Origin: Eledone cirrhosa
Lineage: Eukaryota
Assembly (NCBI GenBank): GCA_964016885.1
Contig: OZ024743.1
Span: forward strand, 24,056,001-24,120,000
Length of the DNA stretch: 64,000 nt
Reading direction: 5' to 3'
Part shown: positions 9,721 to 63,003 of the stretch, piece after piece
How the letters are laid out: each line of letters begins with the position of its first letter
Position numbering within the stretch: position 1 is the first letter of the stretch
The notes under the pieces: generated by a model
Seen by the model: the letters and a program-made list of their open reading frames with translations, nothing else
Told to the model about the DNA's origin: nothing
Database searches by the model: none
Program-made: the position numbers and the translations under genes

Positions 9721-9765
9721 GCTGACAATTGTTTCTTCCAGAGGGATGTCTAGAATCATCGGAGC
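9721..9765 (-). ncRNA. type I hammerhead motif, CCGAUGA core variant
   Basis: Minus strand: GCU-CCGAUGA-UUCUAGA(CAUCCC)UCUGGAA-GAAA-CAAUUG-UC-AGC. 7-bp stem II, palindromic helix III ACAAUUGU, GUC site. Confidence 0.6.
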
Positions 9766-10293
9766 ATAAGGAATGTCGAAAACGTGTAACTAGAATCCTA
9801 GTCATTTAGAACATTTAAGGTACATAGTTGTTATTAGTGTCAAAGCATCATGTGGAGATTCAGGAGTTAGACAGATTTTCTGCTTGAAATAACACAATTA
9901 CAGGCAGCACTGGTTGGAAGTGTAATAGGTATAAGTAAAAGCAAAAAGCACAAGCAAAAAAATGACAAGAAAAAAAGACAGGGAAATAAGTTATAAGCAA
10001 AGACAATTGGTGTACAATGTAGGAGTCAATACATGTATGAGGAAAGAGTTATAATGCAGTTGAAACTTATAAAATTAAGTAACCTAACGGTTTACCAACA
10101 GCTTAATAAAGGTTAATACAAACCTTAGAAAAGATAATTTACAAATAAAAAATGCATAAGATAATATACCTACAATAACAACATGGCCAGTAATTCGGAG
10201 GAATTTACATTTAACAAATTAGGCTGCTCAGCCGATAATATGCATAAGGAAAGTATATACTTTCAAACGTTCAATAGACTGACAGGAAGGTAT

Positions 10294-10336
10294 ACGGTGC
10301 TGATGACAGCTAATAAGCTAGAAAATAGTTCATCGT
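10294..10336 (+). ncRNA. minimal type I hammerhead motif (partly degenerate copy)
   Basis: ACGGUG-CUGAUGA-C-AGCU(AAUA)AGCU-A-GAAA-AUAG-UU-CAUCGU. Stem I 6 bp with one G.U; helix III palindrome broken by one substitution. Confidence 0.6.
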
Positions 10337-10930
10337 TCCATTGTCAGTGTTGAACAAAAGGGCAACGATGGTTGCCGAACACTGTACGGCTTAATTCGGG
10401 CTGTTTGTTTACAAACAAACTGAACATTATAATAAATGTTCGGTAAACCCATACGTACATATATGTATGTGTGCATGTATGTATGTATATACATACTACT
10501 GTACGTCTGTATACATACTTACATTTAAGTATCAGCCGTACTAAGAGTGAGAAATGAAATTTCATTTTTTCCATTTATATATATATATATATATATATAT
10601 ATATATATATATATATATATATATATATATATATATATATATATATATATAAATGGAATAGAATGAAATGAAATTTCATTTCTCACTCTTAGTACGGCAC
10701 TTACTTAAATGTAAGTATGTATGTATGTATACGTACATACATATATGTATACACACGTACAGTAGTATGTATATATATACATACATGCACACATATATAT
10801 GCGCGTATCGGTTTACTGAACATTTATTATAATGTTCGGTTTGTTTGTTTGTAAACAAACAAACAGCCCGAACTACGCCGTACAGTGTTTAGGCAACCAC
10901 GTCACCTTTTTGTTCAACACTGACACAGGA

Positions 10931-10973
10931 ACGATGTACTAGTTTCAAGCTTATTAGCTATCGTCAGCATCGT
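10931..10973 (-). ncRNA. minimal type I hammerhead ribozyme
   Basis: Minus strand: ACGAUG-CUGACGA-U-AGCU(AAUA)AGCU-U-GAAA-CUAG-UA-CAUCGU. 6-bp stem I, palindromic helix III ACUAGU, GUA site. Confidence 0.8.
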
Positions 10974-11179
10974 ATACCTTCTTGCCAGATGGTTGAACGT
11001 CTGAAAGTATATACTTTCCTTATGCATACTAACGGCTGAGCAGCCTAATTTACATATCGAGTGAGTTCAGTCGGCCGGGCACACCGAAAACGATAAATGG
11101 AATAGAATGAAACGAAATTTCATTTCTCACTCATATATATATATATATATATATATATATATATATATATATATATATA

Positions 11180-11649
11180 GTTAAAAGAATAGAGGTGTAA
11201 CACACAAGTTATTATATATTGGTAAACGGAATAGAAAATGCTGACAAATTGTTCACAGTTGAAAAATGGTTTAATTAGGAATAAAAGAGTATTAGTGATT
11301 GTATGGGTTAGTATTCAGTTGTGGTTTTAAGTTTTTAAGTTTTTACTGGTTGCGCATTTCTAAATGCTTTTCAAAAATAATTTTGAGATAGAGTGTCCGT
11401 GCTGTTTGCTCTGATCAGAGCAAACAGCACGGACACTCTATCTCAAAATTATTTTTGAAAAGCATTTAGAAATGCGCAACCAGTAAAAACTTAAAAACTT
11501 AAAACCACAACTGAATACTAACCCATACAATCACTAATACTCTTTTATTCCTAATTAAACCATTTTTCAACTGTGAACAATTTGTCAGCATTTTCTATTC
11601 CGTTTACCAATATATAATAACTTGTGTGTTACACCTCTATTCTTTTAAC
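11180..11649. repeat. 470-bp spacerless palindrome between (TA)n tracts
   Basis: Centre ctga|tcag at 11414/11415; ends G11180 and C11649 are equidistant from it; no mismatch found by eye. Family relatives at 38351-38598 and 47678-48104. Confidence 0.9.
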
Positions 11650-12286
11650 TATATATATATATATATATATATATATATATATATATATATATATATATAT
11701 ATATATATATATATATATATATATATATATATATATATATATATATATAACGAAGGAGTTGTTGTAAGGAACCAGATAAACCATAACGCACCAGAGTACT
11801 CAATACTTAGAGTAGTAGAGTGTGTAATATTCAAGGAAACAACAAACAGAGGTACAAAAAGTCTTATTAGTTACACGCTTTATATGGAAAAGAGGAATGG
11901 AGGAATGGATAGAAAATAAATAAATAAAAAATTAACTGTTTTCCAGCAAATATCCAGTGCATTACTGGTACTTTATTTTATCGACCCCGTAAGGATGAAA
12001 GGCAAAGTTAACCTTGGCGGGATTTGAACTCAGAATGGCAAGGACCGTAACTCTATACGTCAAAGCTTGGCGTTCGACCCTCTAAAAAATTAACATGAAA
12101 AAAGCAAAAAGAAAATTGAAAGTAATAGAGATATCTAGGGGAGACAACTCCAGTGTGATTAGTTGTGTTACTATGGCTACGCGTTTGTTTGGTTAAAATA
12201 CTTCAAACCTGTTATGAATTTTATTTTCACATAACACGGTGTTCCATCTACTTTAAACATATACATTGCGTAATATATTGAGAACA

Positions 12287-12388
12287 ATGGAGTCGAATAA
12301 AAAGGAAACAGCGCCTTGGCATTTAACGGCCACTGGCGAAATTGGAGTGAAGAGAGAGCCTATGTTGTCAAATGAATTATTACTGAGA
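12287..12388 (+). CDS. CFAP77: cilia- and flagella-associated protein 77, exon 1
   Basis: ATG 12287; MESNKKETAPWHLTATGEIGVKREPMLSNELLLR, then GTATGT donor (phase 0); cf. human RLGVVRDSMFQNPLIVK. Confidence 0.8.
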
Positions 12389-60614: not shown

Positions 60615-60619
60615 ATGGT

Positions 60620-61560
60620 GGAAGTGGCCTACTTCCCACTCCAAGTAGCAAACTTAAAATTCACCCTAGAATAGGAATGAGCAATGGGATGACAAATAAC
60701 AAATGCCCAGGTAATAATATCCCTACCAACTCCACTAGAACCCCTAGAAGGAATAAGCCTAGAAATATCACCTGGCTTAACCCCCCATTCTCATCTAACT
60801 TAGCCACTAATATCTCTAAACGCTTCTTCTCTATCCTATCTAAATACCTCCCCCCCCCAACCATAGATATTACAAACTCTTTAATAAAAACAACATTAAA
60901 ATCTCATTCTCCACAACACCTAACCTAGCTAGCCACATCACATTCAGTAACCAGCATAAACTAAGACAGTATAATTCCCACACCGCGGTACTACCACCCC
61001 CATCAAATACACCACGCCACTACACCAACACTTACTCTAGTAGCACACCTCCCCCATCTAATCCTTCTAGCACGCACCAACCGCATAGTTTAAACAACCC
61101 TACACTCACTAACGGCAGAAATAACTGCAACTGCCGTTACCCTAATGCATGCCCACTAAATGGACAATGCCTGACACCCAATATAATTTATAGGTGCACA
61201 GTTAAAATAGCTTCGCATACCAGCTCCTATATTGGCTCTACCTCTAACCCTTTTAAGGTACGCTATAACGCGCACTCTTTTTCCTTCCGAGACCCTAACA
61301 ATAGATGTTCGACATCTCTAGCTAGGCTCATTAAAAACCTTAAATTAACCAACATTGAACACTCACTAACATGGGATATCTTGGCTGGGGCCCAACCGTT
61401 CAATGGACGAAAAACTCTTGTGACCTCTGTCTTACCGAAGCATATTACATAACTCTATCACGACCTCTACCGATTAACGATAGAAGGGAGGTAACTATTA
61501 GCTGTCAACATCGAAGGGCTAATTCCTTCGCCAACAGAATATTTGACCCAACATAGTCAT
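60620..61560 (+). mobile_element. Penelope-like element fragment with C-terminal GIY-YIG endonuclease
   Basis: ITWLNPPFS, CNCR...CPLNGQC, IIYRC...SYIGST..FKVRY..H, CDLCLTE, SCQHR; frameshifts near 60850 and 61400. Confidence 0.85.
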
Positions 61561-61914
61561 CTAGTCCCATTTTTACTTATAGCTAATAAGTTAAATAGTT
61601 ATAGCTAACTTAGATAATTATAAGTTACATTGTCTCTCAATTAAAAAAAAAAAATTAGCACTTCTTAACTAAAAACTACCCACAATTTCTAATTTCTCGA
61701 GGAGTTACTTCCCCGGAAACCACCCTCTAATTAGTAAGGTAAATATGTCCATTGGCTGCCATCTTGTTACCCATAGGCAGATCTCACACAATGCAGCCTC
61801 GACAGAAGAATATTGCTCGACTATGGCAGAGAATAGATATACCCAGGACACGATAGTGAAATACCAATATATGGAACATTACATTCATGTAACATTCTTT
61901 ATTTTAATTTATAT

Positions 61915-62046
61915 TCCTTTTGAAGTTCCGATGAGCTGCTCTAATTGTACCTAAGTTAATTATCTTCAACTGAACCAGATCGGTAATGATCTATACTCAT
62001 TTGATCCAGAAACATTATATGGAGTAGCGAAACAATTGTAAACGGA
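61915..62046 (+). ncRNA. type I hammerhead, CCGAUGA core, 94-nt stem II domain
   Basis: UCC-(bulge)-GUU-CCGAUGA-GCUGCUCUA...UGGAGUAGC-GAAA-CAAUUG-UA-AAC-GGA; 9-bp stem II base starting G-C; palindromic helix III; downstream of the PLE ORF. Confidence 0.65.
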
Positions 62047-62076
62047 CATTACTAATATTATTATTATTGTTATTAC

Positions 62077-62702
62077 TCTTTGAGTCTCAGTCATTGATGT
62101 TAGTTAACTGGAAAGTTTGTTGAAATGAATATCAAGCCACTACCTGCAGCCTCAGATATTCAGGACGTATCGGAGGGTTCTTGCTGTTCTCAGCAAGCAT
62201 GCCTTTTGAAGCGTTCCAAAAATCGTGAAGGGGCTAATTTTCTTTAACCATCCCTGGAAACTTTTTGAGATAGTCCCTAGTGCGCCTATGACAATCGGGA
62301 TCACTTTGACTTCATGGCAGTTCCAAATCCTTTTTACCTCCCACTTTAAGTCCTGGTATCGGTTAATTTTCTCCCTCTCCTTGTCTTGCACTCTCGTGTC
62401 GAATGGGCAGGCCACATCCACAATCAGGCACGATCTTTTTTCTTTGTCCAAAACCACCAGGTCAGGTCTATTGTGTTCCAGTTTCTTGTCCGTCTGTATC
62501 CTAAAATCCCACAGCACCTTCACCTGATCGTTTTCTATCACCGCCTCTGGCTTATGCTCATACCACTTCTCAGAATGTGGGAAATTGTTTACTTTGCATA
62601 GGTGCCAGTGGATCTCCCTGCCCATCACATCATGTCTCCAGCCCTTATAGTGAGTTTGGGCTAGGTGTTTACACTCGGATACAATGTGAGCCACAGTCTC
62701 CT
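62077..62702 (-). mobile_element. R4/Dong-like non-LTR retrotransposon 3' fragment (RLE domain)
   Basis: HIVSEC, RHD, LWDF, RPDLV, IVDVACP, KINRYQDL, IPIVIGALG; 3' end abuts a (TAA)n-like tract. Confidence 0.85.
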
Positions 62703-62892
62703 CTTTGAAGTTCCGATGAGCTGCTCACACTTTTATAAGAATGTTGTTGAAGTGTATATACATTTTTCGGACACTCTGTATATATATATATATATATATA
62801 TATATATATATATATATATATATATATATATATATATATATATATATACACGGTCTAACAGGTTATCGTTATAGGCAGTCCACTTAGATGCG

Positions 62893-63003
62893 TGCTCTGA
62901 TGAAAACGACTGGTTATAAACAAAGTATTGGAGATCGATTGACGCAAAATCAAGCGAGTAGCGAACTCTAGACTTACCAGATCAAAGAAACAATTCGTCA
63001 GCA
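62893..63003 (+). ncRNA. type I hammerhead motif with 83-nt stem II domain
   Basis: UGCU-CUGAUGA-AAAC-GA-CUGGU...ACCAG-A-UC-AAA-GAAA-C(AAUUC)G-UC-AGCA; inner helices AAGU/ACUU, UUGGAG/CUCUAG, UUGA/UCAA; base of stem II mismatched. Confidence 0.58.

Follow-up and report, generated by a model that had tools for sequence, protein, structure and literature searches.

The 64,000-nucleotide (nt) stretch of the Eledone cirrhosa genome analyzed here (contig OZ024743.1, G000:C4:24056001-24120000 in our coordinates, and referred to throughout as the window) carries a dispersed set of type I hammerhead ribozyme motifs, which we interpret as left behind by many Penelope-like element (PLE) families: eight are likely the 3' remnants of protein-coding PLEs, and five lie in noncoding units that were likely copied in trans by PLE enzymes. 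We assign this reading a probability of roughly 85%. The window has a GC content of ~37% and is rich in (TA)n, in an assembly of 2,995,841,428 bases. A preliminary description of this DNA had listed 14 hammerhead motifs; of these, 13 belong to multicopy families, while the motif at 39924 is a chance match, and mutations are present in about half of the window copies.

A core-like heptamer followed by GAAA is present at all 14 coordinates, on the strand originally assigned. We scored the window with a type I descriptor comprising the core, a stem II of at least 3 base pairs (bp), GAAA, helix III, UH, and a stem I of at least 3 bp, taking a score of at least 11 as a strong match, and used 100 dinucleotide shuffles of the window, with the microsatellites held in place, as a control. 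This gave eight strong matches, compared to a mean of 0.23 per shuffle (maximum 2, n = 100), bearing out the expectation that the motifs would be more frequent than in shuffled DNA; five matches have a palindromic helix III, compared to 0.09 per shuffle. Seven of the eight strong matches lie in the native register, and 10294 scores via a non-native one. Since the descriptor itself requires pairing, covariation across families is partly circular as evidence, and the fair test is a core-only search in which pairing is not demanded, applied to 484 kb (the window, 40 arbitrary 10-kb stretches and two flanks). Its 38 matches have stem I in 29 cases, stem II in 28, a Watson-Crick 15.2-16.2 pair in 37 and a perfect palindrome in 22, compared to 3, 23, 37 and 4, respectively, among 62 matches pooled from 15 shuffles. 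Stems I and II are both present in 23 of the 38 matches, in none of 6 from the reversed sequence, and in 1 of the 62 shuffled ones. Over all fetched loci, 352 descriptor matches include 36 multi-member clusters, in agreement with the earlier suggestion of many unrelated families.

The motifs are thus real and far above chance expectation. Were they instead chance matches in AT-rich repetitive DNA, as 39924 is, one could point to a background of ~10% for loose core patterns and 60% for the CCGANGA pattern, and to the Rfam search, which at gathering score returns zero hammerheads in the window; at E ≤ 5, none is found among the 150 of 194 window matches listed. Searched alone, 10931 matches Rfam Hammerhead_HH9 at 19.2 bits, below the gathering score of 52, and 49123 gives no hammerhead match. 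The shuffled and reversed-pattern controls refute this explanation, which we find barely conceivable. Type I hammerhead features (the CUGANGA core, GAAA and UH, along with three helices of which helix I is open) are found at the family level for 13 of the 14 sites (with stem II weak in family K), and self-cutting of these motifs is predicted.

Six sites look intact, with all helices and the usual or a family-typical core (9721, 10931, 14636, 45430, 49123 and 61915), the core at 9721 and 61915 being CCGAUGA, as in their families. Six more are damaged copies of good families: 10294 in helix III, 16341 in stems I and II, and 39733 in stem I, while 22559 has CUGAGUA compared to CUGAGGA in its family, 54934 has UUGAUGA compared to CUGAUGA in most relatives, and 62893 has an additional C within helix III, in a family (K) where stem II closes poorly throughout. 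The stem I mismatch at 55793 is common to its whole family. Helix III had been described as a repeatedly different palindrome, a description that fits neither AGAACU (14636 and 55793) nor the long hairpin at 16341. The remaining site, 39924..39975 (+), is a CUGAUGA without hammerhead helices: it lacks the 15.2-16.2 pair, has a stem I of 2 bp, and is overlapped by no scored family match. We also rejected it as an inverted copy of family F, as the inverted piece comprises only the neighboring 39850-39920.

We then searched each module against the genome and examined the best 12-30 of 40 scored loci. The motifs at 9721, 14636, 22559, 45430, 49123, 55793, 61915 and 62893 are likely 3' terminal-repeat remnants of 5'-truncated protein-coding PLEs, and the preliminary view of the modules as mostly nonautonomous is not supported, these being 8 of 13 real motifs. 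The corresponding families (B, C, N, E, H, M, J and K, respectively) have, in their longest copies, frames upstream on the hammerhead strand, with both reverse transcriptase (RT) and endonuclease frames in C, J and M, and the endonuclease part only in B, E, H, K and N. The window copy of family J is a 5'-truncated Hydra-like PLE at 60614..62062 (+), with a broken GIY-YIG frame, a 3' untranslated region (UTR), and a hammerhead with a 93-nt stem II region (core 61928, predicted cut after 62040). It is 93% identical to locus L081 over 60666-62064, continuous with the window GIY-YIG fragment, and has a near-complete relative in L151. PLEs such as the fragments at 60620 and 44530 had been put forward as mobilizers of the modules; PLE involvement is supported, and the 61915 motif is the 3' end of the 60620 fragment itself.

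The Neptune-like families include C, at 14570..14831 (+) (core 14640, predicted cut after 14674), where 1.3-1.5 kb of upstream sequence that includes RT and endonuclease frames is common to 3 of 15 copies, and its young sister family M, at 55629..55873 (-) (core 55831, predicted cut after 55798), where RT or endonuclease frames lie upstream in 6 of 14 copies. The minimal hammerhead of family H, at 49033..49243 (-) (core 49154, predicted cut after 49127, helix III ACGU), continues into thumb and GIY-YIG frames in 1 of 20 copies (L116). Among the Hydra-like families, K, at 62850..63061 (+) (core 62897, predicted cut after 62999, damaged helix III), reaches an endonuclease frame in 3 of 12 copies, and N, at 22410..22698 (+) with an inverted 5' piece and a mutated core at 22564, has one locus (L279/L282) with an endonuclease frame, a long UTR and an inverted copy. 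Family B, at 9552..10215 (-), has its core at 9762 and its predicted cut after 9724, and is bounded at the end by the (TA)33 of 9486-9551; no frame was found in its 15 copies at first, but following a 5' walk, 3 of 15 reach an endonuclease C-terminus ~1.6 kb upstream. Family E, at 45390..45546 (-) (core 45517, predicted cut after 45439, branched stem II), is likely the 3' end of a Hydra-like PLE, with frames in 0 of 20 copies at first, 0 of 18 continuous after a first 5' walk, and an endonuclease frame in 1 of 20 after a second.

The sparsity of such frames is what would be expected if all modules were nonautonomous ribozyme mini-elements with PLE frames as chance neighbors: most copies in each family are short and frameless, the first sets gave 0/15 for B, 0/20 for E and 0/15 for the noncoding family I, and with 49,988 first-look candidates for a single endonuclease piece, PLE fragments are abundant enough for chance neighbors to occur. 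Yet independent long copies of C, J and M run continuously from frame to hammerhead at 90-94% identity, contradicting this explanation there, and the 5' ends are truncated stepwise, in a ladder that lacks any fixed starting point. We hold this explanation to be very unlikely. The coding families, with ragged 5' ends and fixed 3' ends, also display PLE insertion traits, namely 5' truncation, an inverted 5' copy, an optional 3' tail and a microsatellite target.

Two side observations concern family J. A 3' fragment of a restriction-like-endonuclease long interspersed nuclear element (LINE), presumably Dong/R4-like, lies at 62062-62727 (-) inside the (ATT)n of the J 3' end, and its 5' junction holds a 23-nt copy of the start of the J hammerhead (61918-61940). 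A similar LINE fragment occupies the equivalent place in family J at L088.

The clade names used here are based on motifs, not on an RT tree. The Hydra clade is characterized by RWK-like and DKT motifs, a CxCX5C linker, endonuclease CxxC and CxH motifs, and (TA)n insertion (PMC8557442), and the family J frames in L151/L152 contain RWR, DKT, CNCRYPNAC, CDLC and CQH. The endonuclease ends of B, E, K and N resemble that of J, and C, M and H carry a Neptune-like CX4CxxC linker. Pfam support is weak (RVT_1 at E 1.4e-04 for an M-type frame, GIY-YIG at E 0.021 for the window piece, and none for L152), and a homolog search with the J-type frame returned 233 mostly unnamed relatives, which did not supply a clade name.

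The fragment at 44530 (44520..45390, -) is a different case. Its relatives have GIY-YIG upstream (L160, Pfam E 3.5e-05), followed by PLE N-terminal-like residues, while the core RT was not recovered; the window piece corresponds to the part between the N-terminal GIY-YIG and the RT. Homology to its relatives ends at 45390, where the module carrying 45430 begins, which rules out this frame as the 5' open reading frame (ORF) of that motif. Judged by sequence, it is probably an old Naiad-type remnant and not a partner of the hammerhead modules; Naiads are described as lacking canonical hammerheads (PMC8557442).

The other five motifs, 10294, 10931, 16341, 39733 and 54934, lie in what their sequences indicate to be noncoding repeat units of 340-490 nt, resembling non-LTR (long terminal repeat) retrozymes, and these units were likely copied in trans by PLE enzymes. 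Family A has a 440-nt unit and two window copies: a damaged one at 10215..10575 (+) (core 10300), with its 3' end at (TA)38, and an intact one of just over one unit at 10652..11133 (-) (core 10967, predicted cut after 10937, palindrome ACUAGU), whose 3' end meets the same (TA)38 from the opposite side. Among 30 loci, 18 exceed one unit and 17 carry an inverted copy upstream, and arrays reach seven motifs at 430-440 nt spacing (with one gap of 313). The unit dimer contains no ATG-started ORF above 75 amino acids, and three units give circular-fold z values of -6.0 to -7.6. Family A has the genomic features of non-LTR retrozymes, with noncoding tandem units with one type I hammerhead each and a GC content below 50%. 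A PLE frame lies upstream at 4 of 30 loci, separated from A by (TA)n in the one viewed (L007), and the arrays of five and seven motifs have no PLE frame upstream.

The damaged family D copy at 16113..16667 (+) (core 16357, predicted cut after 16430) has a long helix III and an inverted 5' piece at 16113-16249; its unit is 450-490 nt, with a direct repeat spanning the motif in 4 of 12 copies, three of these at 448-490 nt, and the 3' tail repeated upstream. Family F, truncated in the window at 39695..39920 (-) (core 39780, predicted cut after 39746, inverted piece 39850-39920), has a 340-390 nt unit, exceeded in 6 of 14 copies, and its 3' tail is repeated upstream at 341-389 nt. Family I, at 54860..55100 (+) (core 54941, predicted cut after 54975), is old (~77% identity) and only tentatively a ~350-nt retrozyme-like unit, with a 350-nt tandem in 1 of 15 copies and a PLE frame upstream in 0 of 15. 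In cofolding calculations on four motifs, dimers lie 2-7 kcal/mol below two monomers, with palindrome pairing only in H and I; we do not use these values as evidence. As a separate observation, ~16 equal-scoring family D copies carry an extra partial repeat, and several lie within 60 kb of contig ends (G000:C13:59384, C9:44189, C10:43110, C6:102528166 and C13:47245913), probably as a subtelomeric block.

Tandem organization raises the alternative that A, D, F and I arose as satellites from PLE ends and multiplied chiefly through recombination at the DNA level, with the hammerheads as passengers without a present role. Long local arrays do occur, the damage to about half of the window copies and the age of D, F and I (77-86% identity) would fit, and the route is one that bioRxiv 2026.07.22.740005 allows. 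Family A behaves otherwise: its copies, 96-99% identical, are scattered across at least 10 large contigs, mostly as 1-2 units that have 5' inversions and whose 3' ends are fixed at (TA)n, and 27,161 of them retain an exact core with a paired stem II. We therefore consider satellite spread unlikely and prefer copying in trans by PLE enzymes.

This preference draws on the insertion pattern. In line with the preliminary description, which had placed the modules next to (TA)n, (TA)5 occurs within 250 nt downstream at 9 of the 14 sites (39924 among them), and 3' ends lie at (TA)n. In a wider sample of 45 motifs, some of which are neighbors within one array, (TA)5 lies within 300 nt on the 3' side of 37, compared to 18 on the 5' side and 25% of random positions. 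Likewise, (TA)4 is found at a family 3' end in 87 of 130 copies of the eight PLE families, compared to a background of 8%. Families C, M, N, E and K have a main 3' end plus a longer tail. For family A, 29 of 30 copies could be aligned (one lacks the anchor), and their 3' ends fall at +220-230 after the cut site in 12 copies, at +281-282 in 12, and elsewhere in 5. Family A thus carries the PLE insertion signature of two fixed 3' ends 60 nt apart, 5' inversions and (TA)n junctions. Such a two-end "tail" has been described as unique to PLEs, and it is produced when an Anolis PLE protein, having nicked AT-rich DNA, begins reverse transcription from two sites internal to the RNA; the Anolis PLE hammerhead cuts only with protein present (PMC11167929).

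We propose that (TA)n DNA would be nicked by a PLE RT/GIY-YIG protein, with reverse transcription then beginning within a tandem or circular RNA, at either of two fixed sites that lie ~60-290 nt downstream of the hammerhead; this start-site model is suggested by the two fixed 3' ends observed here, together with the work on Anolis Poseidon. Copying would mostly end early, often with a 5' inversion, and both early stops and inversions are observed. A hammerhead near the start site would then be retained by nearly every truncated copy, which may explain the high motif density. For the noncoding units, we infer by analogy with the retrozymes of coral, mussel and axolotl that multimeric transcripts would be cleaved by the ribozyme into single units, mostly in dimeric form via the palindromic helix III, and that these units would be circularized; A-type RNAs would be copied in trans. 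Dimer cleavage by PLE hammerheads was reportedly observed by Lunse and co-workers in 2017.

Several points weigh against our reading. The link to a coding frame is provided by one copy or locus each for H, N and E, and that for E contains a 125-nt stretch without second-copy coverage. The units A, D, F and I share no sequence with the PLE ends tested, bar apparent unrelated neighboring repeats, so that the comparison neither points to a partner PLE nor shows that the units descend from a PLE terminal repeat. The family 3'-end motifs behind the (TA)4 count were chosen by eye from the very copies counted, and the +222 end of A falls within a TA/TACA-rich tract where alignment ends are imprecise. 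Finally, Anolis PLE insertion in vitro is independent of its hammerhead (PMC11167929), and only one of nine Xenopus retrozyme dimers was cleaved (bioRxiv 2026.07.22.740005).

The window is typical of the genome. We sampled forty 10-kb stretches at round coordinates on 15 contigs (400 kb) and obtained 40 descriptor matches with a score of at least 11, compared to 1.6 in shuffles; this matching density excludes a local hammerhead hotspot in the window. A block bootstrap gives ~290,000 motifs per genome (95% range 140,000-460,000). Exact genome-wide counts are 146,373 for the core with an 8-nt helix III (reversed pattern: 16,705) and 107,525 with a 6-nt helix III (reversed: 7,922), summing to 253,898 compared to 24,627 for the controls, or ~229,000 net. 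Stems I and II are not required by these patterns, a single site may be counted twice, and the classes with long stem II and 4-nt helix III are excluded. The CCGANGA variant adds 16,986 compared to a control of 10,181, and family A alone has 27,161 exact cores with stem II paired, compared to 0 in the control. The large radiation suggested earlier is therefore supported, although the accompanying figure of one motif per 4.5 kb includes damaged copies and gives way to an intact density of about one per 10 kb genome-wide. On balance, we lean slightly toward the compound proposition that the genome holds ~230,000-290,000 intact-looking motifs, or one per 10-13 kb, in dozens of families missed by Rfam, that this is the largest animal hammerhead load yet counted, and that the two-start-site tail of family A is a direct footprint of PLE enzymes mobilizing retrozymes.

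The commonest families in the sample (helix III AUGCGCAU, AUAUAUAU and AUAUGUAU; L034, L060 and L070) have no intact window copy. A further retrozyme-like family has a 311-nt unit with helix III ACGCGU, in long head-to-head tandem arrays (L048:8630-9700, at G000:C3:280.0 Mb, and also C1:1239857-1244284).

Published counts of minimal motifs are ~2,000 plus 1,300 for Schistosoma mansoni, with coelacanth at 4,000 and Xenopus tropicalis at 9,000 (PMC4209133). The mussel figure is ~5,000 and the axolotl one 126,247 (PMC7229834), the axolotl genome being 28 Gb (bioRxiv 2026.07.22.740005), and in giant squid, Rfam hammerheads number 235 (PMC6962438). Our count exceeds each of these values, with the reservation that descriptors differ and that schistosomes, whose genome is small, carry canonical motifs by the thousand as well. 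The hammerheads resemble the minimal and short-palindrome ones of metazoan PLE pseudo-LTRs (Cervera and De la Pena 2014, PMC4209133) in their type I order, palindromic 15.2-16.2 pair plus loop 3, an additional base separating positions 9 and 10.1, the presence of many divergent families within a genome, and predominance of single copies from truncated PLEs. They differ in that several families have 6-8 nt palindromes, a stem II that is long or branched (61-93 nt), or CCGANGA as the core, and in number (~2,000-9,000 per genome there compared to >200,000 core matches here), a comparison that is not like for like. With the Hydra and Neptune PLEs (Craig et al. 2021, PMC8557442), our coding families share the C-terminal GIY-YIG, a hammerhead near the 3' end, partial tandems, 5' inversions, the tail and (TA)n targets, as well as the Hydra motifs in J and the Neptune-type cysteine linker in C, M and H. 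The Hydra clade was described there from 23 aquatic-invertebrate proteins, whereas here it is very abundant, with 3' UTRs of up to ~1.6 kb.

The noncoding units resemble animal non-LTR retrozymes (PMC7229834; Li, Clavereau and Pollet 2026, bioRxiv 10.64898/2026.07.22.740005) in their low-GC tandem units with one type I hammerhead each, their monomers, dimers and multimers, their strongly self-paired circular fold, and their co-occurrence with PLEs. Their genomic units measure 340-490 nt, compared to ~170-400 nt for published retrozyme RNAs. Unlike 24 of 57 Xenopus families, no sequence link between unit and PLE terminal repeat was found here, while a two-end PLE tail with (TA)n junctions, as in family A, was not found described for retrozymes in the passages of these two sources consulted. 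The elements are thus of known kinds, namely PLE terminal hammerheads and non-LTR retrozyme-like units, and what is notable is their scale and the PLE tail signature on a young noncoding family. A literature search, with most subscription papers outside its reach, found no paper on octopus hammerheads; the supplements of PMC8557442 (Hydra-element hammerhead lists, Octopus families) and the repeat library of PMC13282606 may already include these families.

To date, the case for the mobilizer of animal retrozymes has come from co-occurrence and terminal-repeat similarity (PMC7229834 and bioRxiv 2026.07.22.740005). To this, family A contributes a footprint of the mechanism, and it occurs alongside young PLE families, making mobilization testable with purified protein; if the footprint is genuine, it provides a ready RNA-protein pair for in vitro work. 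With self-cleaving motifs spaced every 10 kb along both strands, most long introns would contain one, such that the host must tolerate or silence them; dimer dependence would be one possible route. The families also constitute a large natural set of hammerhead variants for structure-activity work, one that standard Rfam annotation misses.

The window holds several other repeats. A perfect 282-nt inverted repeat without spacer, flanked by (TA)n and with no hammerhead core seen, spans 11133-11696, with related sequence at 38544-38714 and 47564-48109. A ~180-nt repeat resembling a short interspersed nuclear element (SINE), very abundant in the 400-kb sample (dozens of matches), occurs at 11918, 32627, 34232, 37566, 42634, 51834, 53676, 54106, 55441 and 57417, and interrupts module M at 55629. 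Two copies of another repeat, at 31460-31611 and 34570-34721, have a tRNA-like part above the Rfam tRNA gathering score and are probably a tRNA-derived SINE. Ordinary repeats with Pfam matches lie at 7586-9022, 28733-29778, 15034-15792, 40427-41398, 58556-60674 and 41737-42130; we take the ordinary repeats of the window to be CR1/L2-like RT fragments, two Tc1/mariner fragments, Tx1/L1-like fragments and a 33-nt minisatellite.

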